Source: a virus
Lineage: Duplodnaviria > Caudoviricetes
IMG/VR virus record: IMGVR_UViG_2834368228_000004
Span: 96,001-160,000 of that record
DNA: 64,000 bases
Reading direction: 5' to 3' (one strand)
Shown here: positions 25,885 to 47,500 of the stretch, piece after piece
How positions within the stretch are numbered: position 1 is the first letter of the stretch
How the letters are laid out: every line of letters starts with the position of its first letter
Made by a program: the position numbers and the translations under genes
The notes under the pieces: generated by a model
Databases searched by the model: none
Told to the model about the DNA's origin: nothing
The model's input: only the letters and a program-made list of their open reading frames with translations

Positions 25885-25894
25885 TCAAAAAATG

Positions 25895-25932
25895 AAAAGA
25901 GACAGCCTACTTGGTAAGCTGTCTCTTTTTTT
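25895..25932 (+). terminator. Rho-independent terminator after the tail tube gene
   Basis: AAAAGAGACAGC-loop-GCTGTCTC-TTTTTTT. Confidence 0.88.
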
Positions 25933-25946
25933 AAAGGAGTGATTAA

Positions 25947-26837: not shown

Positions 26838-26838
26838 T

Positions 26839-27600
26839 ATGAATAGACAAATGAGAGGTTTTGCTCCGCAGCGAGACTTATATAACCGTAGGGATACACG
26901 TGTTGAATACCAGTTATTTAGCCAAGAATATTTTTCGGGAGCAGACATGCACATATATTTTGGTGATATATGGGTGGATGAAATCACAGACTTATCATTT
27001 CAAATGCAAGAAGAAGTGCTACCTATCTATGGTTATAATTCCTACACCTTCGATGAGTTGGCGAGAGGGAGAAGAATGATATCTGGAATGTTTACAATGA
27101 ACTTTACATCTGTCGGTTATCTTCAAAAAATATTAGATCACGCAGACGCCATTAATCATGTGGTAGGTGCAGCTGCTGGTGCTAATCCAATTAATATTAA
27201 AAACTATGATAAGTATCGATTGGATGAGATTCTTGCACTTTATGGCAAAGATAGTTTTGAGCAAATTGCAAATGAATATGAAGAGGCCATTTGGGGTAAG
27301 TCTGAAATGAGTGAGTCTAATGCACTTAGCCTACCCAATCAACCATATTTTCAACGAAACAATAAAGATGGCTTTGACATTAGAATACATTATGGTCCTG
27401 TAGAAGAAACATATAGAAATAATAGTGTCTATCGAGTAGATTCTCAACGTATGAAGCCAAACTTAACTGTTGAAAGTTTAAATGGGGTTCAAATAACAGG
27501 ATTACAAAAAAGCGCAGGAACATCTGGACAGGGAGCACCTGTTCAAGAGACTTATACATTTATAGCGCAGGATCTAAATAGGACTTCCATTAAAGGTTAA
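26839..27600 (+). CDS. Tail tube paralogue (possible tube initiator)
   Basis: YFSGADM...PIYGY...RGRRMISG...YTFIAQD. Confidence 0.7.
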   Translation: MNRQMRGFAPQRDLYNRRDTRVEYQLFSQEYFSGADMHIYFGDIWVDEITDLSFQMQEEVLPIYGYNSYTFDELARGRRMISGMFTMNFTSVGYLQKILDHADAINHVVGAAAGANPINIKNYDKYRLDEILALYGKDSFEQIANEYEEAIWGKSEMSESNALSLPNQPYFQRNNKDGFDIRIHYGPVEETYRNNSVYRVDSQRMKPNLTVESLNGVQITGLQKSAGTSGQGAPVQETYTFIAQDLNRTSIKG

Positions 27601-28824: not shown

Positions 28825-31800
28825 GTGGGTGTTTCTGTGGAAGAAGTAAGAGTTGAAGATTATCAGAATAGAGAACATGACTATCGACGTTTTCTTGCTT
28901 CAGAAGCAGAACGTAATGAAATGCCATTTTATCAAAAATTAGGCCTTGGAGTTGCGGCTGCAGCTGGAGCATTAGCGGTAGGATATAGAACAGGTGCTAT
29001 GCGCCATATGGCAAGATATCTTGATGATGTTGTTGCACCAACCAGGCAGGCAGTACGTGAAGTCTCTTCAGAGGAATCACCAATACTGAAAAACTTAAGC
29101 TTGGATGGTTTAAGAGATCGTGGATTGAAGATACAAGACAGACGAAATGAATTAATGCAATTGCGTCAAGAACAATCAAACTTATTAGATCGTAGAGAGT
29201 TTGATATGGTTCGTTACCTTCGTCAACGAGATACGCTAATCAATAAGGACGTTCCTGAATATATCTCTGAAGGACTTCGTTTTCAGTCTGTGATGCGTGA
29301 TATTAGAAACTCACCTTCTATAAAAAGGGAAACTGCTAATCAGATTGAGAAAGGATTGGCATCAGGGTATACCGGCATCTTAAAACGTGGAAGTGCTTCC
29401 GATATCAATCACCTATTAAGACAGTCAGGTGTTCAAGATAAAGATGTTCTTGATGTTGTGCATGACGCTAGAAAGAATAACCGGGATCAAGACTTTTCTA
29501 GAAGATCTGAAGAAGGAAGAGCTTGGATTGAAAACGTTCAAGAAAAATTAAGGCAGTCAACAGCTCAAGACATTGAATCTATCACAAAGCAAAATAATCC
29601 AATTAAGCAGTCTCTTTTAGGTAAGAGTCAACGTCAAGCTACCATTCAAGACGTATTAGAGCTACATAAATCAAAACAAATTGTTTTAAATGAAGATGTA
29701 CTTGGTCAGATTAAAGATGTAACCAAACACAATAAAGGGTTTCAGGATGCAATTTTTGATAACAATCTATATGTCACATTGAAAGATGGAAAAGTATCAG
29801 GCTATGCTGATTATAAGGCATTTGATAATGTCGGAAGAAACACTATGGAGTGGTGGTCACATACGATGCCTGGTGGATTAATGCATTTTCGTGACATGAT
29901 TAATATGCGAACAGCTAGAGAGCAGTCAAGCTTCCGTATTTTTAAAAGAGGTAGTATTCAACCTATGTTGAATGCTCACATGAATATTAATCCAGGTGAA
30001 GCTCTGACAGAAGATGTAGTCTTTTCTGGTGGAAGATTCATGCGATTATTTGATGATAACGCAATTAATAGTAATCAACCGCTTGAAGTGTTAAATCCAA
30101 ATAGAGAGATGTATCTTACTTCTTCTCGATATGGTACTGTTTCCACAATCACTCGACAAGCAAGTGGTGTTATGACAGATGGTACCCGCAGTGTTATGGG
30201 AGTCGATGTAACGAATAATAGACTTTTTAAATCCTTGGATATAGGTGGTCAAGAGAAAGACCCAATTGCATCAGAAGGTTTTAGTGTTTTTAGTAAGTTC
30301 TTTGACCCGGAATGGGACAGAAATCGTATTAATAAGGCTTTATCTAAAGGTATTGATTCACCTGAAGAGTATCATTTCTTACAGAGATTTTTAGATGAAA
30401 ATACGATTGGACTATCACCTAGAGTATTAAATCAAATAGAATCACATTTACCACAGTCATTACAGACTGAAATTAAAGATATGGGAATTCATTTTGGACG
30501 AGACGAAGATATGCTTAAGCTATTTAAGCATCTTGGTGAAGGGAATTATCGGACAAGTTTTGAATTCAATCAATTGTATAGAAACTTTGATCGAAACCCG
30601 GAAGAAGTCTTAAATAGAACAATGCCCAGAGGAAGAACAAGTGTCATCTTAGGCGGCAGCATAGAAGTTAAAACAGGAATGGATCAAATCAATCAAGAGA
30701 TTGGTAAAGAATTGGTTCGCCAAATAGCACAGCATGAATCGATTACTTCAGGTGTCCCTGTTCGAGAAGCACAGCATACTTTACGTAACATATTGAAAGA
30801 CAAAAGTAGTGAAGGACTTTTAACAAAACCTGAATTTCAAAACGCTGAAAGATTAATAAATCAACAAATGTTTGAGCAAGCTGGAAAGAGTTTAAGAGGA
30901 AACTATGAGCACCTCATTAGTGAAACCAACCAATTATTGTTAGGCAAAGATAATATCAATCAAACATTCCAACAAGGACTAGATACTTTATCTAAACAAG
31001 TAAATCCATTGCTTCATAAAAGCACAAATGCAAACCATGTCAATCAAATTGCAGATGAATACGTAGCAGTTAATAAGTCAAATGTTTGGGATAACTTAAA
31101 AAGTATTGATGGAATTAGAGATTTAGGTAGACAATTAAGTTTACGTACTGGTTCTCGAAATATGGAAGACATGACTACATTATCTATCTTTGGATCTTAT
31201 TATCCAGCATATCGTTTACAAGAAGCTTTAGGCAGTCTTGGACTAGGTTTATCTGGAGCTTCTATGGGAAGTCCGTTGCAAATATGGAGCTCCTTGCTTT
31301 TAAAGCGTGGACTTCCGATTGTCGCAGGTGTTGAAGGTTATCAGTACGCTGACTATTTGATGGATGAATATACAGGAGCAGGATTTTCGGAAAGATGGGA
31401 AAACTATAAAGCTCATCAGCGGTTAGCTGATGCTGGTGCTAGGGAAGAATTCGATTCAATAGCTGACTTAGAAAGACAACGTATGCTGCGTCCTGGAATT
31501 GAACATTTTGAAGCAATGCCATCTATTCATTTACCTGGATTTGGTGAAGTAGGTCCTGGTGTTCTTCTTAATCAAATGATGGGAGCTGTAACTGGAATAT
31601 CTTCTCCATTATCTGATAAAGATACAATGACAGTAGAAGAGACATACGATGATATCCTCCATGGTACAGATGAGATTCGTAAAGGTCGATGGTGGGCAAT
31701 CGGGTCACGGACTGCTTATCGTGGAGACCGTATCATTGAATTTGCTCCTAATAGTTATAGGCAAGCCCACAGTGATTGGGAGTATACCAATGTTATTGGA

Positions 31801-34677
31801 AGCGGAGAAGAGCAGTATGCTCATTCCTTATTTCCAACGTTTGAAAACCCACTAGGAGCTCTTTCCTTTCTAATTGGAACTAGAGATCCTTACTGGTTTG
31901 AGAAAAAGCATTATTATGATCGGCCTTATCTTTTAACAGGTGATTTCTTCAATAGTAATACTCCTTTCATTGGAGATATTGGAAATATGACCATAGGACA
32001 GATTTTAAAGCCAACACGAGAAATGCATGGAGAGTACTGGGCTGAACCAGAAATCATTCAGGAAAGTGCTGATAGTTTAGGTGAACGGCCATCAAGACCA
32101 GTAACAACTCGTATTTCTCCTTCAGGTCGTGTTGAATATAATGTTGAAGCATCAATTCAAGACTATGGAGCGGAAGCACCTATTTATGTTGCCAGAAGAA
32201 GAATTGATTCAGAGACGAATGAAGAAACAGGCGACATGATTATTGGTGATTTGCAATCAGGAAAAACAATTTATCTTCCAAGTAGAATGAATGGTGCATA
32301 TGTTGACTTAGATAGTGCTTTTATTGCTTCTGAGCAAAACATGGAGCGAATGATTGAAACGAGTCCACAAGGGCTGTTTGCACCAACTTATGAGTACCAA
32401 AAAGAAGTAGATCGCAGGAAATTAGCAGAATTAAATGACCCTCGAAGTGCACAATGGAGAGCGCAAGAGATGGCAAGTAACTGGCTGGAGCCACACGGTG
32501 TATATAACTGGATTTTCATGGATGAGCTACTTGGAAGAGATCCTTATGCAGGAAAAGAAGTTATAGCAAAAGCAGACCAAGCTTATAATGCATCTAACGC
32601 TTTCTGGGACTCTGAATTAGGTTCTCTAGGAGGAAGTCTTTCAGAGATTGGCAGACGTTTCATACGAAGAGATAGCGGGCAATTAGAGCATTATAATCCC
32701 ATTCGAAATCAAATGCCTGACTGGTTACCAGGAGGAAATTATTTTATTAATTTCCAGACAGGTGATCCTTATTCTTTAATACCAAATGGAGTATATCGTT
32801 TACCAGGAGAAGCTTATGAAGCGATGAACCCATTACATCCTGATGAAACAGGAAGATATGGAGCTTTTGATAAGCTTAAGATACTGGCAGATGTTGCACC
32901 ATGGTCAGATGAATATCGTTTCTGGAAAGACTATGTAACAGAGTATGAAGATGACCCAGAAATAAGAAAGCAAGCAGCTGAAATTAAACGTCAAGTATCT
33001 CAACGGAATCGAAAATATGAATTCCATGACTATATGTACAAGGATGCAGAACTTGAAAAGGAAAAAGTAACAGTAACAAAATTTTTAGATGATTACACCT
33101 TCCTCGCCAAAGAATATGGCGACCAGCCTATTCGATTAGCGGGCATCGATGCTAGATCAAATGCTGAAGGTGTATTAGAGAAATACATCGATGTTGGTGA
33201 TCGCATCACTATTGGTGTTGATGCTGATGAGAATCATCGTATTTCTGACGACACTTATGGAACAATGAGAGCAGTTGTCTTTAAAGGAATAGAAAGCCTA
33301 AATAGGCAAATTATTGAACGAGGAGAAATGAAAGAATCTCAAACAGATTTCTCTGCCCCTGGTGTGTGGGCAAGGTTTACTCCAGAAGAAATTGCTGCAG
33401 GTGCAAGATGGGAAACAGTAGCTCACGCAGAAACAGCATTTAATACTAAGTTTTTACAAGTCAGAACCGCTCTAGAAGAATATGAAAGAGACCAAATTTA
33501 TTTGCAAGACTGGTCAACGTGGCAAAACTTTGGTGTCACTGACTATGCTATTCCTGCCGTTCAACGATTAGCTGGTCGTGACAATCCATTAATTGCAGGT
33601 GTTGCAGGCGCTGCATTTGGTGGAACCATTGGTAGAATCTTCTTAGGTGGGGGATCAAGAACCAAAGGTGGGGCACTTATTGGTGCGATTGGTGGAATTG
33701 GTGCCAATCTTTATGGAAAAGCTTATGAGTATTCAACTGGTGAAAGATGGATACCAGAGCGTAGGCGTATTGAACATGATATTAATGAGTATTTTGATGT
33801 ATTAGAGTATATGAAATACACAGGACTCTATGAAAAAGCTAAAGTTGAATTATCTCATATGGGATATGATGCTGAAGAGTTTTTAAATTATGTAGAAGAA
33901 AAAGAAGGAAAAACAAAGCAGCGTCGCAGTGAGCTTGAAGAAAGAAAACAAGAACTTTATCTTACTCAACCGAATGGATGGGAAGAAGAACGAAAAGAAA
34001 TTAATCGGGAGTTGGCTAAGCTAACAGAACAGTGGGATGAATTACAACTTCCAGAGCCAGTTGCTCAAGCATTATATTATAAAGAACAAGCAGAAACTAC
34101 GTTATATGCTATTGATCCGTTTGAAGATCGACTTAATATAATGCAGGCTTTACCATATAAAGATCGTTGGTTCTTTAATGATTTTGCAAATGCACGAACA
34201 AAAGATCGAGATGAGATTTTAGAGTTGATTCCTGAGAACCAACGAAGAATTTATCAAGCCCTGTGGGGAATGGAAACTGAGGAAAGAAAACCTTTATCAT
34301 ATTATGCAGAAAAGTATGCAATACCAGATGCAGATTGGGAAGGATGGAGTCCTCAATACTCATTAGAAGATATAAAGGTTCAAGTTGTTCAAGATAGCGG
34401 ATTAAACCTATCTGATTTTAACTTTTGGGAAGATGATGTAGAAGCATCTAAATATGCTCCTAGGTTGCCAGACTCATATGATACACCAAGGTTTGGAGGA
34501 TTTAAGCAAGTTGAAGATAGTATTAGACAAGTATTGGAAGGACAAGGGCTGCATGATGTTCAAGTGACTGTTCATCCAAATAACGGTTCTGAAACACATG
34601 CAAGAGTGAATTATCAAAAAGACCGAAGCCAAGAAATTGAAGATGAATTCCGTTACCATATGGATGACTATTTGTAG
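28825..34677 (+). CDS. Giant tape-measure/ejection-type protein with hydrophobic segments and a degenerate SNase-like domain
   Basis: 1950 aa; LGLGVAAAAGALAVG and Gly-rich hydrophobic hairpins; VTKFLDDYT...IRLAGIDA...DTYG...LNRQIIERG. Confidence 0.6.
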   Translation: MGVSVEEVRVEDYQNREHDYRRFLASEAERNEMPFYQKLGLGVAAAAGALAVGYRTGAMRHMARYLDDVVAPTRQAVREVSSEESPILKNLSLDGLRDRGLKIQDRRNELMQLRQEQSNLLDRREFDMVRYLRQRDTLINKDVPEYISEGLRFQSVMRDIRNSPSIKRETANQIEKGLASGYTGILKRGSASDINHLLRQSGVQDKDVLDVVHDARKNNRDQDFSRRSEEGRAWIENVQEKLRQSTAQDIESITKQNNPIKQSLLGKSQRQATIQDVLELHKSKQIVLNEDVLGQIKDVTKHNKGFQDAIFDNNLYVTLKDGKVSGYADYKAFDNVGRNTMEWWSHTMPGGLMHFRDMINMRTAREQSSFRIFKRGSIQPMLNAHMNINPGEALTEDVVFSGGRFMRLFDDNAINSNQPLEVLNPNREMYLTSSRYGTVSTITRQASGVMTDGTRSVMGVDVTNNRLFKSLDIGGQEKDPIASEGFSVFSKFFDPEWDRNRINKALSKGIDSPEEYHFLQRFLDENTIGLSPRVLNQIESHLPQSLQTEIKDMGIHFGRDEDMLKLFKHLGEGNYRTSFEFNQLYRNFDRNPEEVLNRTMPRGRTSVILGGSIEVKTGMDQINQEIGKELVRQIAQHESITSGVPVREAQHTLRNILKDKSSEGLLTKPEFQNAERLINQQMFEQAGKSLRGNYEHLISETNQLLLGKDNINQTFQQGLDTLSKQVNPLLHKSTNANHVNQIADEYVAVNKSNVWDNLKSIDGIRDLGRQLSLRTGSRNMEDMTTLSIFGSYYPAYRLQEALGSLGLGLSGASMGSPLQIWSSLLLKRGLPIVAGVEGYQYADYLMDEYTGAGFSERWENYKAHQRLADAGAREEFDSIADLERQRMLRPGIEHFEAMPSIHLPGFGEVGPGVLLNQMMGAVTGISSPLSDKDTMTVEETYDDILHGTDEIRKGRWWAIGSRTAYRGDRIIEFAPNSYRQAHSDWEYTNVIGSGEEQYAHSLFPTFENPLGALSFLIGTRDPYWFEKKHYYDRPYLLTGDFFNSNTPFIGDIGNMTIGQILKPTREMHGEYWAEPEIIQESADSLGERPSRPVTTRISPSGRVEYNVEASIQDYGAEAPIYVARRRIDSETNEETGDMIIGDLQSGKTIYLPSRMNGAYVDLDSAFIASEQNMERMIETSPQGLFAPTYEYQKEVDRRKLAELNDPRSAQWRAQEMASNWLEPHGVYNWIFMDELLGRDPYAGKEVIAKADQAYNASNAFWDSELGSLGGSLSEIGRRFIRRDSGQLEHYNPIRNQMPDWLPGGNYFINFQTGDPYSLIPNGVYRLPGEAYEAMNPLHPDETGRYGAFDKLKILADVAPWSDEYRFWKDYVTEYEDDPEIRKQAAEIKRQVSQRNRKYEFHDYMYKDAELEKEKVTVTKFLDDYTFLAKEYGDQPIRLAGIDARSNAEGVLEKYIDVGDRITIGVDADENHRISDDTYGTMRAVVFKGIESLNRQIIERGEMKESQTDFSAPGVWARFTPEEIAAGARWETVAHAETAFNTKFLQVRTALEEYERDQIYLQDWSTWQNFGVTDYAIPAVQRLAGRDNPLIAGVAGAAFGGTIGRIFLGGGSRTKGGALIGAIGGIGANLYGKAYEYSTGERWIPERRRIEHDINEYFDVLEYMKYTGLYEKAKVELSHMGYDAEEFLNYVEEKEGKTKQRRSELEERKQELYLTQPNGWEEERKEINRELAKLTEQWDELQLPEPVAQALYYKEQAETTLYAIDPFEDRLNIMQALPYKDRWFFNDFANARTKDRDEILELIPENQRRIYQALWGMETEERKPLSYYAEKYAIPDADWEGWSPQYSLEDIKVQVVQDSGLNLSDFNFWEDDVEASKYAPRLPDSYDTPRFGGFKQVEDSIRQVLEGQGLHDVQVTVHPNNGSETHARVNYQKDRSQEIEDEFRYHMDDYL

Positions 34678-34688
34678 GATGTGATTAA

Positions 34689-37600
34689 ATGGATGAGATG
34701 AAAGAGAGATTAGAATCACTTGGATTAACATATTTGCCACCAGCTCAAGGTAATCAAGAGTTGGTGGCAATGTTCAACCCAGTTCAAAGAAGAGATTATT
34801 ACCATAATTATAACTATCAAGATAATGTGCAAAAAATGGCCCAAGTTGTGAATCAAAACAATAACAGTAAAGACATTTTTGACAACCAACAAACATATCG
34901 GTTGTTGAATAGTTCGCATAGTCGTATGGGGCAAGATCAAATGCGAAAATTTCAAGACTTCTCAACTGCAAATCAATTTTTCACATTTGATATTGAAACA
35001 CTTGGAAATGCTCTTCATGGTGATAACTTCAGCATTTCTGAAATTGCAGTACAAGGGTTCCAGCGAAATGGAAATAAATTTAAGCCATCTAACCAAAGCT
35101 TAACACTTGTTGGATCACCATCGCAGTCTGTACAAAATGATATGATTCAAGTTATCACTCAATTACGTCAGGATCCATATCAATTCAATAAGTTGGAAGA
35201 TTGGAAGAAGCGTACGCTTGTTGACTTAACAAGATATTCAACTCGAACCGATGGCGGAGTAACACCTGCTGTTTTTGAAAGTCAAAATGGCAATATGATT
35301 AACTTTGGTCATAACAGTTTAGCTAATACCTTCTTTAAAGATGAAAGAATGATTGCTTCAAGAGTTATTGAGAAGATGAGTAATGTGTTACAACATGCAG
35401 AGTCAGGTTTAGAAAATCTAAGCGAAAATAAATATGGATTAAACTCTAATCAAATGATTGATCAATTCAATAAATTTGTTCATCAAAACAATGATAGTTA
35501 TTTCATATCCTACAATGGAGATTCATTTGATATTCCAAAATTAAAGGCTTTTGGAGAGCAAGCAGGAAATAATCCTATGCTGACTCCCAATAAACATTTA
35601 GACTACTTTCGTGTTATTCAAACAACATTCCCTAATCCTTTAGATTTACATCGCTTATTAAATCAAGATGCAAGCAGACCTAGTACTGGGATGACAAAAC
35701 TACAAGCATTCCGCAGTACTTTAGGATACGATACGGAAGCAGCGCACAGTGCTACTCACGATATTGGGTTAGAAGGATTAGCTGGAGTTATACAAGAAAG
35801 TAATCCTCATATTCAAGATAGAATTCAAAATGGCAAAACAAGCATTGGAGATGGATTTAATTTTCAAACTGAAAAGTTTAGTTGGAATGATGCACCAGTA
35901 GAGAGAGGACAGACTTTATTTGCTTTGGGTGGAGTTCGAGCAAGAAGAGATGGCGAATTATCCTTTGCAGCAAAGTTTGATCCAGAAACAGGTGTGTACA
36001 ATCCGATTAATGATTCTTTTAATACAACTATCATTAATGCAAAAACATTCTATGATCTGGAAGGAATCGTTGATTTATCTGATGGAAATACGAATCGATA
36101 TGGATTAAAACTTTACGATCAGGATAGAGATTTACACAACTTTATTATTCGTGAAGGCGACAATGCATTACATGAGATTCAAGACTTTATGCAAAATCGT
36201 TTCTATAATTGGGATGGTTTAGATAAAGAAACACGTAGAAGAGTATCAGATGCTCGATTAACAGATAGTGCTAGACGGCAGTATGAACGATTGTTTAGTT
36301 TGGAGAAAGCAGGAACTGGAAGGACAGGTGGGTTTAATGCTGCTCAGCGAACGTATCAAAATGCAAAAGTTCTAGAAGAACGTCTTAGTGGAAAAGATAA
36401 AAACATACAAGGACCTGATTATCATGCGTTAAGGCAGAATCGTATCACTCATGAAAGTATGATGGAGCAGCTTCGTTCTGGATTCGACAGCTTATGGAAT
36501 CCTGAAACAAAGTCGTGGGTAAAAAATGAGAGAGAAATGGAAAACTTCTTCCGTATGGGAGAAAGACTTATTTCAGAACGGCCAGCCTTTGAACCTGCCC
36601 TAAAATATATTGAAAGTCATTTGTCTGAGCCGACACAAAGGGATTTAGCTTGGAATCTATATACAAAGAAAGTAAATGAAGCATTCCCTATGGCAAAAGA
36701 GACTATTCCTCTACAAGAATTTGAAAACCGAAGAGTTGGATATACAGACTTTAATACAAATACAAAACACTCTTTAGATATGAGTTCATGGAGCTCAACT
36801 GAGCAAAGCATAAGTCGATATGTTTACAGTAGAGATATAAGTCAAAATGGAGATTTAACGCCTGAATTGAGAGAAGATCGATACCGGGAGCGAATGAACC
36901 AATTTTTAAAAACATTACAAGGTAACGATGTTATAAATGAAAATACAGCTAACGAATTAATTAATATTAATAATCAAAGCGCTACAGTTAGAAATGCCAT
37001 TATCGAAGCAACAGACATTTTGCAAAGTAAGGTCTTTGACTTTGATAGCACTGTTCAACAAATATCACTTGGATATAATAATGCTATTCAGCAAATGGAT
37101 TTAGCAACAAATGAAATAATGTTCCAAGAAGCGGTCAAACAAGTTAGATCCATGAATCAGGTTCGAATCAACCCACAGCAAGTAACAGGTTCAAAAGTTG
37201 AATTCAGTCCAGAGGTAGAAAGAGCACTTCAGCGATTAGATCAATCTCGTTTAAGTGGATTGTCACCGAACAACAGACAAGCGTTAGAAAGTGTTTTGTC
37301 TAGTGTTGTAGGAAACAGCAAATTTAATCAACATCATGTTGCTTTAAGCATGGACCAGCAAACAGCTAATGCTAGAATTTCCATTTACAATCCATCAAAT
37401 AGTACAAGCGTGATTGACGCTATCAGCAGTGGACAGGAGCACCCCAATGCCCTAAGCATTAATGTTCCTTTAGTTGGAGAACATGGTGTACATCAAATTG
37501 GAAATAGACGTATTAACGCAAGAAGATACATGGATTATCAAGATGGCCAGTTTGTAGTAAGGTCTTCCACTCAACAGCTTGCAGATAATTATACTCGTAA

Positions 37601-40600
37601 TATGAACCGAATCTTAAGAGATTTTGATGAAGGGGATATCGAAGGTGCCAATAATCGTGCCAGAAGAGTTCTAAATGAAAGCTTAAGAAATCTTTCTGGA
37701 ATACAGAGAAACTTAACATCTAATGATAGCTTCAACATGAACAATAACCAATCTGACTTTTTCAAACAAGGAAATGTTGAAGTTGATACAGCAATGGTTA
37801 AAGATTTATATGCAAGAAACAGACTGACAAATGATGATTTTTATACAACAGCATTTGAAGGTGGAAGGTTAAGGCCAGATGTATCAGTAAATGATTTAAA
37901 GCCTGCCAAAGCATATGAAGTTTCATTAGCAGCTGGAGATTGGTTAAGAGATAACAATTTAAATCTCTTTGCAGGAACAAATAAAGGTGAACATGTATCT
38001 CAAATGATGTTTAACGAACTGGATATTCGAGAATTTCTACCTTATGGTCATTATACGTTCCAAGGTCGAGATAACTCTGTTCAGTTACAAAATGCTCATT
38101 TATTAAACGCTCAAGTGCAAGAAAACATCTTAAATAATACAGAAGGCTATGTGAGCTTTAATGAACTAGTTGCTACTAATAAACAACGAGAATGGGTTAA
38201 TCATTGGAGACAAACAAATCCTTCAGACGCAGCAGGAATGCAAATAAAAACAGCCTTCATTAACGATGGAACATTAATGGATCGAATAAACTCACTTTCT
38301 GAAACAGAAAAAGGTTTAGATCTTCTGCGAGAAGAGGGAATTATCAATGCAGATGGATCATGGAACCACACAAAAATCCCACGTATATATGAACAACAAG
38401 GATTGATTTCTCAGGACTTACAAGAGCAGGTTAAAGTAACAGAGCAGAAGATTTTATCTGAAACGGACGATGTAACACTATTTCGTAATTCAAGAAATGG
38501 AGATACTGTTCAACCGGGGCAGGCAATAGGATATGAAATGATTAATGGGTATCAAAGAGAGTTGCGATATCAAGGTCCTAACCCAGGTACCGTTATCCAG
38601 CAGAATGGTCGTGTAGGTGTTGCGTGGGAAGAAGATGCCTTCAAGTATATCGTTGAAGGGGAGAAAATGACAGATGTTCCTATCAGCAGACGTTTAATGT
38701 CCGCTATAACCGGTGATGATTCCGTCAGTATGATTCTTAACCCAAACATTAAAAAGCACCGTGACTATGGTATGTTCTTGTCAGGAAAAGCAAAAATATT
38801 AGCAGACTATGCGCATCAATTAAGTAATGATTTAGTTCAAGCTACAATAGATGCTCCTGTAACAGATAAAGCAAGCAGAAAAGCGTTAAGACGTATGGAG
38901 TTAGAGACTCAGTTTAACCGAACCATAAATCTCGCTTCAACAGTTGGTCTTCATTGGGATGCAAGTAGTAGGTCATTCATTCAAGAAGGAAACCCAAATA
39001 TACCAGCAAATAGTTTTGAAAATATATTTGAAGAGCTCGGTTTGGTGGATAGGGATGAGCAAGGAAATGTTCTCCGAAGAATCGACCAATCATCTTTAGG
39101 TGACGAACTTGCGATTCTTGAAGCAAGAGTAAGTAAAGTAAGTAATCACAGTAAAATGATAGATGAAACAGGCCGAATCGTTTTAGAAGTGGGTCATGAT
39201 AGAGATGGTAATATAACGAAGAAATACCGTCGTAATGATTTAGGACAGTTTGAGCATGGTGGAGTGAGCTGGGGTCATCGAGAAATGGGGGTCTTTAAAG
39301 ACCTAAATCTCACTGAAACCTATAATAAAGTATATGAAACGATGATGACTCAAGCTCAACAGAATAATAGATTAAATGAAACAAAGAGTATGATTGCAGC
39401 TGTTAGTGGAGCTGTCAATGAAAACCATACATTGGTTTCTGATGCTTCGACATTAAGTGTTGATGATTTTAGATCTCTTCCTGAAATTGATCGTGATACA
39501 AATACGTATCAACAGACTATTTTTGATCGAGACTACATTGAACGACTGCATGGTAATAATAATGCTCACGGATTTTGGTTGGAGCTCCCAGGTGTTCAGC
39601 AAACAAATGGCGACACAAGAAGAGTGACTGCAAACATAAATGGAAGCAGTGGGGAAAGACAAGCATTAAATCGAATTTTCATTCCATTTACTAACTTAGA
39701 AGGAGCTAATGGAGAAGTTCACTTAAGAGAGCTTCAACGTAGCATTGGTGACATTTACAGGAGAGCAGCAGATGTAATTGGCGCAGGTTCCATTGATGAA
39801 CGAGCACGCTCGATGGACGGTTTGCAGGGTGCTGTGGATCGATACTTTGATCAAACAGTAAAAGATATCACTTCTTCTAAAGGACAAACAGGGAGCAGTG
39901 TATTGAAAGCTAGCATGCCTTCATCTGGAAGCGGCCTGTTTAAATTATTAGATCCATCTGTATCAATGGCGCTTGAAGGTGAATTTACATTTATTTCACC
40001 AGATGATGCGAAGGCGCTAGGTGTTTATGATAAGTTAAAAACAATTGAGGAGCAGCGGGTAGCTGGAAAGAGTATAGATGATTTAATGGTGATGAATACT
40101 CGTTATCCAGTGTTCCATAGTGATGCTGTTCAGATTTCAAAATTGCGTGTAAGTGAAGACGCAAGAAAAGGAGAGTTTTTAACTACTTCTTGGCAATCTG
40201 ATTTAATGAAGGCTGACTCCGATGGTGACTATAACAACATTGTTGTCTTAGATGATGATAACATCCAAAAAGAGTGGAGAAGACAATATAATTTACAAGA
40301 ACAAAATCGAGAACAAGCATATCTGGAACAGCTAGGAGATTCTGCTAGAAGCGGACGAGGATTTAATGCAGAGTATGTGCTTGGAGATAATGATGCATTT
40401 CGTCCTTTTGATCCAAATACGCAAGAGGAAATGGCAGCGAAAATTGGTAAACGGGTAGTTGGTTCTGCATCTAACTTAAACTTATATATGAGACAAGTTG
40501 CTGACCAATATCTAAATCATGGTTCAGAAGAGCGCAGAGCTATTTACGAAATGGGTCAGGATTTAGAGCAAAAGCTTATTTCTTCAAAACATGGATTAAC

Positions 40601-41492
40601 CGTAGAAGAGGGTCGTGCTCCTGCTATTGAAATGATTAATTCGGTATACAATAATAACTTCAGTGAAGCCAGAAAAATACAGCAAAAGTATTTTAAAGAA
40701 GACTTCAATTTAGAAATGATGGAAAAAGCTTTCTCTGGTTTAAGTAAAGCATATGAAAACCTAGACCAAGGCCTATATAATCCTTCACTAAAGTTTGGTA
40801 CATCACGAGGATTGAACACAGATGTCGGATTAAAAAATATCCATGACTTACTTCAAGGAGAAGCGGCCATGCATGAGACTGTTCAAACGAACAGCACATT
40901 GCGAATGCTTCAAAACATTTTAGGAGTAGATAATCAGCAAACATTTACAGACATGGAAGGGAACTCTCATGTTCGAGTAGACCCATATGAATCCAGAAAC
41001 GCCCATATGCGTTCTGATCGATTAGGTGGCATGCAAGGAGCTATTCAGGAATATGGAGTAGATTTATCCGGCGGCTCTGAAGGATTTGGAAACAAGATTT
41101 CAGATTTGATGGATACTGTTAATAATAATCGAAACTTTAAGTGGGGAATTATTGGAGCGGGGCTTGCACTTGGAGCTCTGGGAGGATACAATATTCTTAG
41201 ACATAAAGATCCAATCGAGGCTCCACAAGATGAAATGCATTACACAGTTAACAACTCACCTGTTCAGCCAGCAATAGATATGAATCAAGGGAGCTATTCA
41301 GCAAATGCTGATATAAGTGTTAATGCACGAGGTGGATCTTTAAATGACAACGAATTGGCACATATGATAAATCAAGGAATGGTAGATTCACAAATGAATC
41401 CTAGCAATCCACGAATAACAATTAACACAACTGATAATACACAGCAGCTTAATCGTTTCTGGTATAGAGATAAGATTGAGGAGAATGTGTAA
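34689..41492 (+). CDS. Putative single-chain two-barrel DNA-dependent RNA polymerase (fused beta/beta'-like) with an N-terminal DEDDh exonuclease; probably virion-associated
   Basis: Exonuclease: FDIET, YNGDSFD, HSATHD. RNAP-like motifs in canonical order: K-x6-K, ILNPxxxxxR, GGVSWGHREM, SSKGQ, RYPVFH, ADSDGD, QKLISSKH. C-terminal hydrophobic segment. Confidence 0.8.
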   Translation: MDEMKERLESLGLTYLPPAQGNQELVAMFNPVQRRDYYHNYNYQDNVQKMAQVVNQNNNSKDIFDNQQTYRLLNSSHSRMGQDQMRKFQDFSTANQFFTFDIETLGNALHGDNFSISEIAVQGFQRNGNKFKPSNQSLTLVGSPSQSVQNDMIQVITQLRQDPYQFNKLEDWKKRTLVDLTRYSTRTDGGVTPAVFESQNGNMINFGHNSLANTFFKDERMIASRVIEKMSNVLQHAESGLENLSENKYGLNSNQMIDQFNKFVHQNNDSYFISYNGDSFDIPKLKAFGEQAGNNPMLTPNKHLDYFRVIQTTFPNPLDLHRLLNQDASRPSTGMTKLQAFRSTLGYDTEAAHSATHDIGLEGLAGVIQESNPHIQDRIQNGKTSIGDGFNFQTEKFSWNDAPVERGQTLFALGGVRARRDGELSFAAKFDPETGVYNPINDSFNTTIINAKTFYDLEGIVDLSDGNTNRYGLKLYDQDRDLHNFIIREGDNALHEIQDFMQNRFYNWDGLDKETRRRVSDARLTDSARRQYERLFSLEKAGTGRTGGFNAAQRTYQNAKVLEERLSGKDKNIQGPDYHALRQNRITHESMMEQLRSGFDSLWNPETKSWVKNEREMENFFRMGERLISERPAFEPALKYIESHLSEPTQRDLAWNLYTKKVNEAFPMAKETIPLQEFENRRVGYTDFNTNTKHSLDMSSWSSTEQSISRYVYSRDISQNGDLTPELREDRYRERMNQFLKTLQGNDVINENTANELININNQSATVRNAIIEATDILQSKVFDFDSTVQQISLGYNNAIQQMDLATNEIMFQEAVKQVRSMNQVRINPQQVTGSKVEFSPEVERALQRLDQSRLSGLSPNNRQALESVLSSVVGNSKFNQHHVALSMDQQTANARISIYNPSNSTSVIDAISSGQEHPNALSINVPLVGEHGVHQIGNRRINARRYMDYQDGQFVVRSSTQQLADNYTRNMNRILRDFDEGDIEGANNRARRVLNESLRNLSGIQRNLTSNDSFNMNNNQSDFFKQGNVEVDTAMVKDLYARNRLTNDDFYTTAFEGGRLRPDVSVNDLKPAKAYEVSLAAGDWLRDNNLNLFAGTNKGEHVSQMMFNELDIREFLPYGHYTFQGRDNSVQLQNAHLLNAQVQENILNNTEGYVSFNELVATNKQREWVNHWRQTNPSDAAGMQIKTAFINDGTLMDRINSLSETEKGLDLLREEGIINADGSWNHTKIPRIYEQQGLISQDLQEQVKVTEQKILSETDDVTLFRNSRNGDTVQPGQAIGYEMINGYQRELRYQGPNPGTVIQQNGRVGVAWEEDAFKYIVEGEKMTDVPISRRLMSAITGDDSVSMILNPNIKKHRDYGMFLSGKAKILADYAHQLSNDLVQATIDAPVTDKASRKALRRMELETQFNRTINLASTVGLHWDASSRSFIQEGNPNIPANSFENIFEELGLVDRDEQGNVLRRIDQSSLGDELAILEARVSKVSNHSKMIDETGRIVLEVGHDRDGNITKKYRRNDLGQFEHGGVSWGHREMGVFKDLNLTETYNKVYETMMTQAQQNNRLNETKSMIAAVSGAVNENHTLVSDASTLSVDDFRSLPEIDRDTNTYQQTIFDRDYIERLHGNNNAHGFWLELPGVQQTNGDTRRVTANINGSSGERQALNRIFIPFTNLEGANGEVHLRELQRSIGDIYRRAADVIGAGSIDERARSMDGLQGAVDRYFDQTVKDITSSKGQTGSSVLKASMPSSGSGLFKLLDPSVSMALEGEFTFISPDDAKALGVYDKLKTIEEQRVAGKSIDDLMVMNTRYPVFHSDAVQISKLRVSEDARKGEFLTTSWQSDLMKADSDGDYNNIVVLDDDNIQKEWRRQYNLQEQNREQAYLEQLGDSARSGRGFNAEYVLGDNDAFRPFDPNTQEEMAAKIGKRVVGSASNLNLYMRQVADQYLNHGSEERRAIYEMGQDLEQKLISSKHGLTVEEGRAPAIEMINSVYNNNFSEARKIQQKYFKEDFNLEMMEKAFSGLSKAYENLDQGLYNPSLKFGTSRGLNTDVGLKNIHDLLQGEAAMHETVQTNSTLRMLQNILGVDNQQTFTDMEGNSHVRVDPYESRNAHMRSDRLGGMQGAIQEYGVDLSGGSEGFGNKISDLMDTVNNNRNFKWGIIGAGLALGALGGYNILRHKDPIEAPQDEMHYTVNNSPVQPAIDMNQGSYSANADISVNARGGSLNDNELAHMINQGMVDSQMNPSNPRITINTTDNTQQLNRFWYRDKIEENV

Positions 41493-41504: not shown

Positions 41505-44500
41505 ATGGCTACAACATTAGCAGTTGATGACCGGGATTCCCGTTATGGGGTCCTCGGTGATCATTATATGCGTATTGGAGATACACAGTTTTATTTACCT
41601 CCAACAGATATAAAAGTACATCGAATGATGAAGAATCAAAAGGTTTCTGTAATGCGAGGGAAAAACAGCTTGCCGAAAGAGTCTGGCTATTTTGATCGAG
41701 TAATAACACTAACTATCTTCTTCCCAGATGTAAGGTCTATAAATGATGAGTTAAGACCTCTATTGGCACAAAGTAAAAAGTGCCCATTTTTACCAATAGA
41801 AAACACTTATTTAAATGATGCACATAAGGTAGAAGCAATTACAATACAGAATGTTACAGTGCAAACCACACCAGGTTTTCCTAATACATTGCAGGCAATT
41901 ATTCAATGTTATGCATTTGAACCAGCTGCGTACATATATGGTTCTACTGAAAAGACATTTGATGAGATGTTTCATTGGCCATTATTTAGATGGTATTATG
42001 GCAGGCATTTAAAAAAGGTAAAAGTTGTTGATCCTGTCTTCAAGCAATTGTTTGGCAGTAATTCAGATAAGCAATTAACTTACTTTGAGCCTGTAAGTGG
42101 AGAGGTGACAAACGATTTTCAGTTTCGTATTGTAGCTGAAGATGATTTGTTAGCAATACGTGAATGGAACAAAGAGAAGAAAGAGCTAATTAAGGCTTGG
42201 CAGGAAGATAAGAATGGGTCTAGCTTAGGTGATTTCTTCAAAAATGCTATCAGTTCAAAGAAAGATGGAGCTAAGCCTATAACGAAAAAAGGCAAAGAAC
42301 AACAGTTTAATGAAGAATATGATGAGTTATATTCAAAAGCAATGTATGAATATGATTTGCATTATGAAACTTGGGACTTAGGAAGAATGGAGCTAGAAGA
42401 CTTTAGCATAAGTTTTGAAAACTCTATTTCATCTTATCAATTGCAGATGCATCAATCTCCTGCACACCAATATTTAGGTTCTCAGGATACTGTAATTGTA
42501 GCACGATTTAAGACAGATGATATGGAGTCTGTTGCCAGTTTAGAAGATCTTATGAGAAGGACATCCTATCTGACACGTGAATACCACAAAGAAGTTTCAA
42601 ATGGTTTCCTTGAGATTGACCATCAATTAGCAAGGCTCTATGGAGTGAAAAGTGTTGTCATTGATGATGTAAGTATCAATACAATAGAAGGTATGCCAGG
42701 TGTGTATGACATTACATTGACCTTAATGGCTTATAATCGTGCTGAAAAGAAAATGCATGAAGTAAGTGCAATGACTTTGGGGTTAGACTGGGATGCAAGT
42801 GGTACTATTGTAAATCCATACTTACAAAATGCGATGGCAGGATTTAAGAAAATACACACGTCTATTGGAATACAGCAAAATGCAGAACAACAAGCTATTT
42901 ATAATGAACATGTTATTAATGCTTTTCGTGCGGCAGAACTTTATCCAGACTTAGAGCTTCCAACATATGATGAAGTAAGAGAAGCTGGATTTAGTTTAAT
43001 AAATAATAACAATGGAGTCTTTGTAGATCCAGACTTTTTTATAAAGTATGATAGTTTTCAAGACTATGCTCAGCTATTAAGCGAATCTATTGATTCAGGA
43101 AGCAGCGACATCAAAATGTATGATGCCACTGGAGGAACTGCTACGGTTACTAAAGGTGGATTAAAGCTTGATGAAGTTGCTGATAGAAAAGTAGAAGAAA
43201 TGAAGACTATTACAAAAAACAGTGTTCCGAATCTGGGTGTTTCTGAAAACGTCAATGCAAATCAAGATACTACAAATCGTTCTACCCTTGAGATGGAAGC
43301 CTTAATAAGAAAATCTGCACAGGTATATGAAATTCCTGAAATCTATCCAATAGCTTTTGCGAAAGCATTTGACTCCAAGTTAAGGCATTTTTATGAAGTG
43401 GGAGACAATCCTGAACTTGGTGGGATCTATAATAGTAGTGCTGGCTCTCCAATTTTTATGGGGTCCAATTTAAACCTTCTAGGTGGAGATAGATCTGCGG
43501 ATTATGCAGGTGTTATGCGTGTTTCCAATCAATATGGGGATGCTAAATTAATTAGTAAAAGCATAGAGTATAATGTTGATGTTGGAATGCGTTACATGAA
43601 GTACTATTGGGAAGTTGCAGGTTCCATGATGGAAGATGAGAGAATTAATACAGATCGCTTGCATCAAATGTTAGATATTCCTAATACGAGTTTAGACGAT
43701 AGCTACAAAGCGCAATTCATTCTTATGTCTGCTCTCTATTTGCAACATGACCGAGAAATTCTTGCAGTGATGAATAAAGGGCAAGAACCGAGAGCAAGTA
43801 TCCTTCGTATTTATGAGCACTTACTAGATGTATTGGATGGAACAGAAGCATGGGGATATGAAAAGTTGCAGAAAGAGTATGGGAAGCTAAAAGTGCAAGA
43901 TTACAAGGCCACCATCTATACCGTTGATGATGACAATCCAACTCTTAATATTAAGCAATCTGATATCGATATTGAAGATACAACAGAGTTAGAAAAAACA
44001 ATGATGCATGATATGCTTGAATATGACCGTAGAGGGAGACTTGTTAGGGCTTTCCCAACATTTTTTATGACATTTATTGATGAAGGACAATTTGTAGGAA
44101 GTGCAAAAATGTCAGACCAGTACTTTCACTACAGAGCAATTAGTGACATTACATACAATAATAGTCGGAAGCAAGCTTCCAGTACACTAGTGTGTGAATT
44201 AAGTAATGTATTCGGCTCCTTAAGTGATAGTGAGAAAGCACAAGATTTAACGCATACTTCATTTGGCGATATGTTCCTTGCATCAATTATGCCAGGCGCT
44301 GTTGCAAAAGCTCAAGAGAGAAGCAGACATCGAAATTCTAACTTCTATAAGAGTATTTATCTTCGTACAGGTGTTAGGGTTCACATGAGAATGGGATATG
44401 GAGCAAACGCTGCTGAACTGCCAACTATCATGAATGGAACTATAACAAGTCTTCAAAATAATGGAGCAACCATAACAATGATTGCTCAAGACGATGGAAT

Positions 44501-47500
44501 AGAGCTTACGAATAAATTAAATGCAATGATGGATATTGATCCACAAGATGAAACCAGTGGATTTTTAAGCTCCAAAAAAGAGCCAACGGAAATTATCGAT
44601 GAGCTATTAACTGACTCACGAGGATTATGGTCAAACATTTCTGCATCACTAAGCAACAAAGAATATCAAGATCATGCACTTGGTGTAATGCATTTCGGTG
44701 AAACTGGATTACCTCAAGGAATTGCAGACTTTAAAGATTTATTTACACTTGGAATTATGGAGAGCAGGGATCGGGCTGAAGTAAATATGAATGTTTATCA
44801 GACGACGGGGCTCCTTCATGAAGATCAAAGCAAATGGTACAACCGATTAAAGGATGGTCTTGGAATTGGAGAATCAGATGAGGTAAATATTAATATTAAC
44901 CTTTATGATAAGACGATATGGGATGTTCTAAACATTGGAGCATCAGTCGGGTCTGACATGATAACAGCGGTCCATCCATTTGGTTTAAGAAGTACTATCT
45001 TTTTAGGGAAACCATACTTCCCAATCACCTATGGATATAAAGTTGACTTAGAATCAGAAAAAGTTGTTGGTGAGAAAATCAAGTCGTTCAAACAACTGCA
45101 TTCTTACGATAGTTACACATCCATTATTAGTAATGGGATTAAAGCTACGGAAGACAATATGTATACTGTTGCAGTAGGGGCATATAACAATGAGGGTAAA
45201 CTGAATGTAACCCCACCAGTTTATGTAGATAGTAATATATGGCCAGAGAAACAAAAGACAGTAAATATTGATACAACATTGAATGCTAAAGGAGTAGCAG
45301 CGTTAGGGGCAGTTCCCTTTATTGGAGATATGTTAAATAAACCAGCTAAATGGTTCTTTGATGAAGGTGTTGCACTTAAAATAACTGCTGCAGGACTACG
45401 TGATTTTGTAAAAGATATGTATGATGGTTATTTGACGGTTCCTGGTGATCCCTCTGTGAAGCCTTACGACACAATGCTACTTCAAGACTTTTATACAGAT
45501 ATGGTTGGTCCCGCAGATATGAAGGAGATTATTCACGTTATGAATCACGATGTAGGATTCATAACAATGATAAAACCTGATGTAATTGCCTACAATGAAG
45601 ATCAAACTATTTTTAATACCATTGCACGAGCGATGACAGTTGTAGCTTATGCTGCCACTAGAATGATTGCCCACAATATTTTAAAAGCAAAAGGATATAC
45701 AGGTTCATTTCCTATTTTAAACGCAGTCTGGTCAAGCACAAAAGAAAAGATGGGTAAAGCTCATCGAACATTTAAAGGAACCGCTTCTAAGGTAACAAAT
45801 AGAATACCGCAGCTTGATATTGACCGATGGAAGAAAAATGGAACATTTGATAGTCTCTCTAAATCCTTTGGTAATGTTTCTAAGAAAGACTTAGAAGACC
45901 TGTTGAAGAAAGGGCAATTAAATGCATCTAAAACAATAAAAGATTTCAATAAGAAGTATCCTAACTTAAATAAAAAAGCAAGTACAGTTTTATTGAAGGG
46001 TGAAAAGGGAGCTAAGAAAGTTTTGAGTGGTGGAAAGGCTTTGGGATCTGTAGTTAAAGGAGCTTGGAAAGCAAAGCACGCTTTATTAGGACCTGCAGGT
46101 ATTGTAACTTTAGCAATAGAAAGTGTAGTTGTATCAGCTCTTAGCTCAACAGTTGGTGAGTTTACTGAAAGATTTTTAATGAATAGGCAAGCTGTAATTA
46201 TTGTTCCTCTGAAAAAAGATGGATTTGAGTTCACTGCAGGTATAAATGGAAATAAAGGTTCAGTCGAATCCATACCAGAAGATTTAACAAAGTTTTATGA
46301 ACATCTTCCTGGACCGCTTTTAGATATGTATATAAGTGCAGAAAGTGCAAACAGTGAAGATGCAGGAGCTAGATTATTTTCAATTCGAAGTGCTTCATCT
46401 CAAAAAACAGTTGATTTAAGCACCATTTTGAATGGACGGATATCTTCCAGTCATATGTATAAAGATAATGGACTTATTGAAGAGATGTATAAAACAGATG
46501 TAGCAGCAGCAGAGAAAGAGATTGCAGAGCGCTTAGAATATTTAGTTAGCATGACACAAGAAGCTCAAAATGTTCAATATACTCATCTTCAAGAAAAGGA
46601 TTTGAGTGCTCAAAGTATTTTCTCTAACTTCCTCAATCTGTTGTTTAAGGGCAGTGATACAGAGACCGAGCAGTGGGATGGTACAGGAAGTATTTCACTT
46701 AATGGTAAAGCTGTTAATCTATCAAAGTATTTTAATAAGCTTGGACCGATGATCGATAAAGAAACAGAAAGACAAGGTGTTCCCCAGTATGCGGAAATAT
46801 TAAAAGCAAAAACAATGCAAGAATCTGGTGGTAATTATGAACGATATCCAGATGTCATGCAGTCATCAGAAAGCTTAGGACTCCCTCGAAACTCTATCGG
46901 TTTAAGTCGAAGTTTAGAGCAAGGTGTAAAATACTTCATACAGATGATGAATTCAGCAGGTGGAGATGTCGCCCTAGCTATGCAAGCTTATAACTATGGT
47001 GGTGGATTTATCAACTATGTTAAAGAGCGTGGTGGAGCATGGACACAAGAATTAGCAAATGCTTTCTCTGACATGAAAGCAAGCCAATTGGGTTGGAAAA
47101 GATATGGAGATAAAAATTACATTAAAAATATCATGCGCTACTATGAATATCCAAAAGGTGGAACAGATGACGCACCATCCACAATCGGGTCAGAAGGAAG
47201 GTCAAAATATCGATTGAGTTTAAGTCAAGCTAAAAGTCAATTGATTGAAGCTAGAGAAGCTAATGATAGAAAGTTTAATGTTACATTAGTTGGATCAAGT
47301 ACAAGCTTGATGAGAAAAGGCACATTTGATTTATTAAATCAAATAGCTCAGGATTATAAAAAGTCTACAGGGAAAACAATTAATATTACAAGTGCTTATC
47401 GAGCAAATGATCCAAACTGGCATGGTACTGGATATGGGGTAGATATTGATACCCCCAATACAATGAGAAGACTTTCTGGAGGAAAGCTTGGATTTCCAAA

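Follow-up and report, generated by a model that had tools for sequence, protein, structure and literature searches.

To our knowledge, phage RNA polymerases (RNAPs) that enter the host cell together with the DNA are known from a few systems only, namely N4, the phiKZ-like phages, the crAss-like phages and P23-45. The present analysis concerns an uninterrupted open reading frame (ORF) of 2,267 amino acids (positions 34689-41492, + strand) in a stretch of viral DNA of 64,000 nucleotides, hereafter the window, which corresponds to positions 96,001 to 160,000 of the IMG/VR record IMGVR_UViG_2834368228_000004 (Caudoviricetes). On the basis of its translation and of structure models, the ORF is predicted to encode a tail-module, single-chain RNAP of the beta-beta' type that carries an N-terminal DEDDh 3'-5' exonuclease with its catalytic residues intact.

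The closest published parallel is gp96 of P23-45, a tape-measure protein with a two-barrel RNAP, which transcribes the pre-early genes including that of a second, non-virion RNAP, and is proposed to work at the entry pore (PMC10770324; PDB 8h2n/8h2m). In each of the two proteins the two-barrel RNAP forms part of a single chain, is encoded in the tail module and is followed by hydrophobic segments. In the window, however, the RNAP is encoded by a separate gene adjoining the one in the tape-measure position, the phage is a Bacillota myovirus and the polymerase lies near the C-terminus rather than at the N-terminus as in gp96. The window protein also adds a DEDDh exonuclease, while the word 'exonuclease' occurs nowhere in the gp96 paper (PMC10770324).

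The gp66 protein of phi14:2, a crAss-like phage, is similarly a giant (2,180 amino acids) single-chain two-barrel RNAP, with most of its chain functionally unassigned (bioRxiv 10.1101/2020.03.07.982082). It is packaged in the virion and needs a single-stranded template in vitro; it belongs to the QDE-1-like clade, and its host and virion type differ from those of the window phage. The word 'exonuclease' is absent from the text of the gp66 paper as well, and no sequence match to gp66 was obtained in PDB searches with the 2,267-amino-acid protein or with its family profile. A crAss-like phage as the source of the window is ruled out by the sheath and baseplate genes and by the Bacillota relatives.

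The non-virion RNAPs of phiKZ and AR9 (PDB 7ogp, 7s00) provide the best sequence match (phiKZ gp55) and the best structural matches of the beta-like half, but they consist of four or five polypeptides, are encoded outside tail modules and lack an exonuclease, whereas the beta-like and beta'-like parts of the window protein share one chain. Fusions of beta and beta' from mobile elements, reported in 2003 and 2012, are mentioned in two further papers (PMC2919709, PMC7824862); by the description given there the 'NCgl1702-like' RNAPs are giant (2,169 amino acids), prophage-encoded, distant beta::beta' fusions, alike in size and kind. A 3'-5' exonuclease is functionally tied to a polymerase other than a classical DNA polymerase in coronavirus nsp14 ExoN/nsp12 and in archaeal PolD DP1/DP2 also, although in both the polymerase and the exonuclease are on separate polypeptides, unlike in the window protein. 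Of these, nsp14 is a DEDDh enzyme and nsp12 a right-hand RNA-dependent polymerase, while DP2 is a two-barrel polymerase and DP1 a calcineurin-like phosphoesterase, not a DEDD nuclease.

A preliminary description of the window, made from its letters alone, had stated that no characterised two-barrel RNAP is known to carry a DEDDh domain on the same chain. The literature search agrees, with no publication found that joins a double-psi beta-barrel phage RNAP with a DnaQ-type nuclease. The individual parts, that is, the DEDDh nuclease, the two-barrel RNAP and the tail-borne virion RNAP, are all known; in the literature searched, neither their combination nor this family as a group of RNAPs seems to have been described, the NCgl1702-like fusions having been compared by description only.

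The exonuclease domain

The DEDDh 3'-5' exonuclease domain is predicted to occupy residues ~94-377 (34968..35819, + strand), as delimited by VIA-align and Foldseek comparisons, secondary structure and the predicted local distance difference test (pLDDT). The preliminary description had placed it at 34974-35765, which corresponds to residues 96-359, and had listed all five catalytic residues as present, which translation of the ORF bears out. The ExoI motif is D101-I-E103 (in FFTFDIETLG; 34989..34997), the ExoII motif N276-G-D-S-F-D281 (in SYNGDSFDIP; 35514..35531) and the ExoIII motif H353-S-A-T-H-D358 (in AHSATHD; 35745..35762), all on the + strand, the last having the H-x4-D spacing of the 'h' subtype rather than Y-x3-D. 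In a full-length alignment of the family, D101, E103, D281, H353 and D358 are each conserved in 71 of 71 sequences, and N276 in 70, while overall identity drops to ~20%; judged from these sequences, the motif match and its conservation go far beyond chance expectation. All five residues are likewise invariant in 5 close homologues, and four homologues of 29-58% identity, from Virgibacillus salexigens, a second NCBI genome, a Logan assembly and a JGI metagenome, keep them.

Profile searches point in the same direction. The window protein has sub-threshold, mutually consistent Pfam matches at residues ~250-360 to RNase_H_2, DNA_pol_B_exo1/2 and RNase_T, along with sub-threshold matches over the same residues to the PHROG families 'DNA polymerase exonuclease subunit' and 'exonuclease'. 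Its score against RNase_T (PF00929) is 16 bits versus a gathering cut-off of 24, and the homologue P0019 from the Bacillus cereus group passes the cut-offs of both RNase_T (24.7 versus 24 bits) and RNase_H_2 (24.7 versus 22 bits). When the family profile was compared with the PDB, the matches in the exonuclease domain were the PolB exonuclease, TREX2, PolC and the T7 DNA polymerase exonuclease.

An AlphaFold2 model of residues 60-460 is of moderate quality overall, with a mean pLDDT of 62.7, the means of 10-residue blocks across model residues 21-250 ranging from 63 to 95 and lying mostly between 72 and 95. The top PDB matches of this model in Foldseek are RNase T, TREX2, REXO2 and epsilon (probability 1.0, E-values 8e-5 to 4e-3). 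VIA-align retrieves ExoI, Orn/REXO2, ERI, 3'hExo, Cap18, TREX1 and Pol III epsilon with Z scores of 9-10.4, aligning 156-190 residues at a root mean square deviation of 3.5-5 over model residues 35-318 (protein residues 94-377), at 8-17% identity to the solved DEDDh chains. An RNase H-like DEDD fold, on which the preliminary description had made its proposal depend, is therefore predicted, DEDDh enzymes being at the top of both lists.

The likeness to the DEDDh exonucleases (RNase T, TREX1/2, oligoribonuclease/REXO2, ExoI, Pol III epsilon; PF00929) consists of the five catalytic residues in three canonical motifs, with ExoII reading NGDxFDxP and ExoIII HSAxxD, and of a predicted RNase H-like fold that superposes on theirs. 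The window domain differs in being longer and in being confined to a family of giant proteins. Its span exceeds that of the solved enzymes (175-210 residues) by more than 100 residues, and the extra length is mostly a partly helical insertion of ~100 residues or more between ExoI and ExoII, which contains the conserved stretch KRTLVDLTRYS (KRTLVDLxRYS in the family). Resting on motifs, profiles and a structure model, the N-terminal DEDDh domain is established as far as computation permits.

The RNA polymerase core

Outside the exonuclease, the window protein has no Pfam match, and no Pfam polymerase model matches the family, P0019 included; a single-sequence phmmer search with the whole 2,267-amino-acid protein against the PDB returned insignificant matches only. 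The polymerase is identified by motifs, by a profile match and by a predicted structure. The motifs form an invariant pair, R1805-Y-P1807 (40101..40109, + strand) and, 35 residues on, D1843-S-D-G-D1847 (40215..40229, + strand), in which the R and P of the R-x-P motif and the three Asp residues of the putative metal-binding motif are conserved in 71 of 71 sequences. The R and P of R-x-P are listed as invariant in two-barrel RNAPs (PMC2919709), and an [RK]-x-P motif 20-100 residues ahead of D-x-D-x-D has been used as a filter for such enzymes (PMC10770324). With a family profile of 26 sequences, the best match in the PDB is the beta'-like gp55 of the phiKZ non-virion RNAP (E-value 2e-4), followed by AR9 beta' (E-value 0.05); the gp55 alignment pairs RYPTF...ADSDGDY of the family with RNPT...ADFDGDQ, and thus sets the two motifs against the RNPT and DFDGD of phiKZ. 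In a distant homologue, P0006 (L004:10001-17080), two ADSDGD motifs were observed (NADSDGDYN at residue 1889 and LADSDGDFH at 1964), the second of which is absent from the other family members inspected.

An AlphaFold2 model of residues 1080-2080, built with the family alignment, has a pLDDT of 88.9 and a predicted template modelling score of 0.83, and in Foldseek it has more than 500 PDB matches at E-values below 1e-3, with bacterial beta' chains on top. Two modules can be distinguished in it. The first, a beta-subunit-like module with the first double-psi barrel, is assigned by VIA-align to residues 1080-1554 (37926..39350, + strand; model residues 1-475). It matches beta/Rpb2-type subunits over ~300-337 aligned residues, with Z scores of 14.8 for 7ogp_C (phiKZ), 14.4 for 7s00_C (AR9), 14.4 for the bacterial beta 6j9e_C and 13.7 for 4c2m_B, and of 12-13.7 for the second-largest subunits of Pol I, Pol IV, vaccinia virus and African swine fever virus. 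The second, a beta'/Rpb1-like module with the catalytic double-psi barrel, is assigned by Foldseek and VIA-align to residues 1573-2077 (39405..40919, + strand; model residues 494-998), with ~390-400 residues aligned to Rpb1/beta'-type subunits (7ob9_A, Z 11.4; 9mu7_A, 11.0; 6edt_D, 9.6). Within the first module, K1319...K1326 (38643..38666, + strand) form a candidate basic pair, K1319 being Lys in 68 of 71 sequences and K1326 Lys or Arg in 70 of 71; from this conservation the two may be the catalytic lysines of the beta-type barrel.

Single-chain two-barrel enzymes align along the whole RNAP model, the Z scores being 11.2 for RDR2, 9.1 for QDE-1, 7.3 for P74-26 gp62 and 7.2 for P23-45 gp96; by these scores the window core appears to stand closer to multisubunit beta/beta' (Z 12-15) than to gp96. 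The modelled carrier is accordingly a fused beta-beta' two-barrel polymerase, nearer to the multisubunit enzymes than to the YonO/QDE-1 clade. As the 2,267-amino-acid protein is without any cysteine, the zinc sites of cellular beta' are absent, and it is therefore not an orthodox beta', though the core fold is present. The RNAP that the preliminary description had called putative is thus supported as a two-barrel core by the phiKZ beta' profile match at DFDGD together with a high-confidence model that matches beta-type and then beta'-type subunits, and the identification of the two domains, DEDDh exonuclease and two-barrel RNAP, is very probably correct.

The middle region between them (residues ~378-1079; 35820..37925, + strand) is conserved in the family and uncharacterised. 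Its residues ~400-1080 (35886-37928, + strand) found no match in Pfam, PHROGs or the atlas look-alike search; D526, R529, R530, G548, R626 and E630 are strongly conserved, and part of the region may belong to the beta-like module as its N-terminal lobes. The whole ORF is thus composed of the exonuclease, ~700 residues of unknown fold, the beta-type and beta'-type RNAP modules, a hydrophobic segment and a conserved C-terminal tail, a domain order retained in 71 relatives.

Distribution of the family and conservation of the fusion

When 1.84 billion representative proteins were searched with a profile of residues 60-460, 69 proteins were identified. Nearly all have 2,100-2,730 amino acids, and in these the domain begins no later than residue ~270; the few of small size look like fragments at contig ends. 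Conversely, a search seeded with the polymerase core alone retrieved 30 proteins of 2,226-2,693 amino acids, and exonuclease motifs are present in all 30. A profile search open to lengths of 550-4,713 amino acids yielded no relative of 550-2,200 amino acids, nor was any relative without the exonuclease found among the 30 proteins of the polymerase-core search and the 71 full-length relatives.

The family comprises ~70 clusters at 50% identity and occurs in phages, prophages and phage-like plasmids of Bacillota. An uninterrupted ORF of ~2,230-2,360 amino acids is present in independent NCBI, JGI, ENA, Logan and IMG/VR assemblies, including eight IMG/VR contigs of 78-216 kb, and in the relatives it is flanked by a gene of ~1,940-1,970 amino acids and a lysin-bearing gene of ~2,070-2,150 amino acids. 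The concern of the preliminary description that a sequencing error might have joined two genes is removed by this recurrence of one architecture in many independent records and by the conserved domain order seen in the survey of homologues.

Three isolated jumbo Bacillus phages carry members of the family, namely vB_BceM_WH1 (gp095), vB_BauM_KLEB27-3 (gp034) and Edson, and their proteins keep both the exonuclease and the R-x-P...DxDGD motifs. A megablast search with 20 kb against phages gave no match, and a search of genome contigs with the C-terminal tail as a pattern gave one locus, on a B. thuringiensis plasmid. Members of the family are encoded on sequences that their depositors classed as plasmids, namely this one (NZ_CP186315.1, Bacillus thuringiensis plasmid p1, 145 kb) and that of P0014 (a Paenibacillus urinalis plasmid), which suggests that these large phages persist as phage-plasmids. 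The relatives are annotated as 'hypothetical', 'structural protein', 'ribonuclease H-like domain-containing protein' or 'DNA polymerase III epsilon subunit-like protein'; the nuclease domain has thus been flagged automatically in some relatives, by two sources, and an RNA polymerase in none of the names examined.

Genomic context and probable association with the virion

All genes in the window read one way and make up the structural module of a contractile-tailed phage (myovirus). The head genes include the large terminase (1716-3500), the portal (4978-7110) and the major head protein (9840-10925), and the tail genes include the sheath (22259-25105). The sheath gene is followed by three consecutive + strand genes of 239, 296 and 253 amino acids (25165-27600). 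All three match PHROG 9206, labelled 'major head protein'; by their position they look like tail-tube paralogues, and the label seems misleading.

Two genes in the position of tail chaperones separate the tube-like paralogues from three giant genes in a row, of 1,950, 2,267 and 2,060 amino acids. The first giant protein (28825..34677, + strand) is assigned to the tape-measure position, as it comes after the two chaperone-position genes and is syntenic with WH1 gp096, which lies behind 'tail chaperonin' genes. The third (41505..47687, + strand) has a Lysozyme_like domain (PF13702, E-value 2e-32) at residues 1747-1881 and a weak DUF6046 match near residue 370, and matches PHROG 20474 ('endolysin') over its full length; the stretch of ~100 residues at its C-terminus closes with ...HHNHLHLSYP, which resembles a motif of the metallopeptidase type. 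The protein probably serves to degrade the cell wall from the tail tip or hub and is not an endolysin. Downstream of the giant genes are baseplate genes, one of which matches a PHROG 'baseplate protein' family and another encodes a wedge subunit. The RNAP-exonuclease gene therefore lies between the sheath, tube and chaperone-position genes on one side and the baseplate genes on the other, and this synteny is kept in the relatives.

Some features of the protein itself are of interest in this setting. The 1,950-amino-acid protein, like the RNAP-exonuclease, contains no cysteine, and the 2,060-amino-acid neighbour contains three; the two cysteine-free proteins may pass through the tail unfolded or be exposed to the extracellular milieu. 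A Gly-rich hydrophobic segment, WGIIGAGLALGALGGYNIL, at residues 2152-2170 (41142..41198, + strand) is a possible membrane segment; its mean hydropathy is under the 1.5 threshold, and hence it is transmembrane-like at most. The C-terminal tail ...DNT..LNRFWYRDK (41439..41489, + strand) is conserved, with invariant columns at 2249-2261. In a library of viral structures, the best named match of the RNAP core comes from an uncultured siphovirus and bears the label 'Minor tail protein' (TMq 0.52, E-value 3e-19, over the whole core).

The depositors of WH1 labelled gp095 a 'virion structural protein', and it is preceded by two 'tail chaperonin' genes and a 2,025-amino-acid 'virion structural protein'; in KLEB27-3, gp034 is labelled 'structural protein' and sits ahead of a 'putative baseplate protein'. 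A search for publications backing the WH1 and KLEB27-3 structural labels found none.

Three relatives (three of nine records) encode a further polymerase of ~1,150-1,180 amino acids, of the single-chain YonO/RdRP type (PF05183, E-value ~1e-10), elsewhere in the genome. At the loci L016 (G001:C1:119792-123751) and L017 (G002:C1:13876-17805) of close relatives, its gene is far from the tail module. No polymerase of this type was found in WH1 and KLEB27-3, so that the exonuclease-RNAP family occurs both with and without a second phage RNAP. Its presence in the three relatives agrees with the pattern of P23-45, in which the virion RNAP transcribes the gene of the non-virion RNAP. The IMG/VR record G002 (215,870 bp), the sole 'complete' relative and classed as having direct terminal repeats, was observed to be packed with minus-strand genes in both its first and its last 20 kb; as both ends lie inside one long minus-strand arm, they probably mark the point at which the assembly opened a circular or permuted map, and not physical termini.

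Possible biological roles

The strict coupling of the two domains suggests that the nuclease serves the polymerase in cis rather than being a free-riding effector. Among the possible roles, which include the three put forward in the preliminary description (proofreading or trimming, genome-end processing and anti-defence) and are ranked here by indirect arguments, we tentatively favour the exposure of a single-stranded template by resection of the 3' end of the incoming genome, to which we assign a probability of roughly 0.3. The protein would travel with the genome or just ahead of it, and its C-terminal hydrophobic segment and conserved tail would remain where the DNA enters, an arrangement already proposed for P23-45 and its tape-measure-fused RNAP. 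If it lies in the tail as a tape-measure protein does, its N-terminus would be nearest the DNA end, and the exonuclease would thus meet the phage DNA at its leading end. Once in the cytoplasm, which contains Mg, it would chew back the 3'-ended strand to leave a single-stranded template, on which the attached polymerase could start pre-early transcription without host factors.

DNA is favoured as the substrate because every relative found at the sequence level is a DNA exonuclease (PolB exo, TREX2, PolC, T7 DNA polymerase exo, DNA_pol_B_exo1/2 and the PHROG families). Where a DEDDh domain is joined to an enzyme that tracks along DNA, its usual task is to process DNA 3' ends, and a DinG fusion among the VIA-align matches of the exonuclease model is an example of such an arrangement. 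A need for single-stranded DNA is, moreover, seen in two virion polymerases. The virion RNAP of phage N4 requires single-stranded hairpin promoters, and the crAss-like virion RNAP gp66 is efficient on single-stranded or denatured DNA and hardly active on double-stranded DNA (bioRxiv 10.1101/2020.03.07.982082).

Several considerations weigh against template resection. That the protein is borne in the virion and ejected is probable rather than certain, on the basis of gene position and of the depositors' annotations, and its orientation in the tail, with the C-terminus towards the tip, is an assumption taken over from tape-measure proteins. The structural neighbours of the modelled domain include RNA exonucleases (RNase T, Orn/REXO2, ERI, 3'hExo), so that the substrate may be RNA or DNA. 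The majority of DEDDh enzymes act preferentially on 3' ends that are single-stranded or frayed, and long resection of double strands is not an activity for which they are known. Finally, resection of the 3' strand would unmask a template solely for genes pointing towards the entering end.

Almost as likely is the editing of RNA 3' ends, in which the exonuclease would remove misincorporated or backtracked transcript ends, or would trim or terminate transcripts, and so stand in for cleavage of the Gre/TFIIS type, which a phage polymerase this divergent and factor-less is unable to recruit. The strict co-inheritance of exonuclease and polymerase is expected under this possibility also, and the same RNA-specific DEDDh enzymes among the structural neighbours count in its favour. 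Coronavirus nsp14, a DEDDh exonuclease that proofreads for an RNA polymerase, provides a precedent. In YonO, a single-chain two-barrel RNAP, transcript hydrolysis is not detectable and synthesis is error-prone (PMC5467207), which indicates that simplified enzymes can lose intrinsic proofreading. Fidelity, however, would be worth little for a handful of early transcripts, and the sequence-level relatives are DNA exonucleases. The backtracked 3' end, besides, sits in the narrow secondary channel of two-barrel RNAPs, in which we know of no separate nuclease domain that acts, and ~700 residues lie between the exonuclease and the polymerase core.

It is rather unlikely that the exonuclease is an independent effector that hitch-hikes on the polymerase to attack host or defence nucleic acids at injection, for instance the 3' ends of host RNA, defence DNA in single-stranded form or short oligonucleotides used in signalling. 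Ejection of the protein would deliver such an effector at time zero, and the DEDDh class includes the nanoRNases and the CBASS-associated Cap18, both of which are among the structural matches. Hitch-hiking domains are, however, usually swapped between relatives, whereas this one is kept in 71 of 71 members down to ~20% identity and was never seen on another carrier in the search of 1.84 billion proteins; cyclic signalling nucleotides, moreover, are without a free 3' end.

Still less likely is a role in the processing of genome ends apart from transcription, by which both terminally redundant ends would be trimmed for annealing, circularisation or protection. The phage's own 3' ends are the sole free DNA 3' ends present at injection, treatment with a 3'-end exonuclease is a classical in vitro route to the annealing of terminally redundant phage DNA, and relatives are on record as plasmid-like sequences or proviruses of 105-215 kb. 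Such a role leaves the obligatory fusion to a polymerase unexplained, and the trailing end enters long after the protein.

That the protein is a proofreading two-barrel DNA polymerase or primase, like archaeal PolD, rather than a transcriptase, is improbable. The union of a polymerase with a 3'-5' exonuclease is a hallmark of replicative DNA polymerases, and the two-barrel fold can synthesise DNA, as PolD shows (PMC4996933, PMC7281927). The best structural matches, however, are the RNAP subunits beta and beta' and the RNA-silencing RNAPs, and the gene lies among tail genes, not replication genes; no PolD chain is among the best 50 structural matches in VIA-align, which is an absence from that listing and not an exclusion. 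An artefact, be it a chance motif or an assembly or sequencing join, would accord with the window protein scoring under the Pfam cut-offs and is ruled out, for practical purposes, by the recurrent ORF, the invariant residues and a fold Z of ~10.

Conclusions

The present analysis identifies a large, previously unrecognised family in phages, prophages and phage-like plasmids of Bacillota, in which a polymerase is permanently joined to an intact exonuclease, and corrects the annotation of relatives whose labels miss the RNA polymerase. There is about an even chance that it would represent the first DNA-templated, cellular-type (two-barrel) RNAP to have a dedicated 3'-5' exonuclease on its own substrate, delivered via a contractile tail as part of the injection machinery. 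Such an exonuclease would either act on RNA, proofreading or rescuing it away from the active site of the polymerase, or would make the single-stranded template of the polymerase. The three isolated, culturable Bacillus phages offer an experimental handle, through point mutants, on a family that touches the unsettled question of how virion RNAPs gain a template that they can use in the first seconds of infection. Editing of RNA by the nuclease would constitute a new form of transcriptional proofreading, whereas resection of DNA would account for the start of a factor-less polymerase on a double-stranded genome as it comes in.

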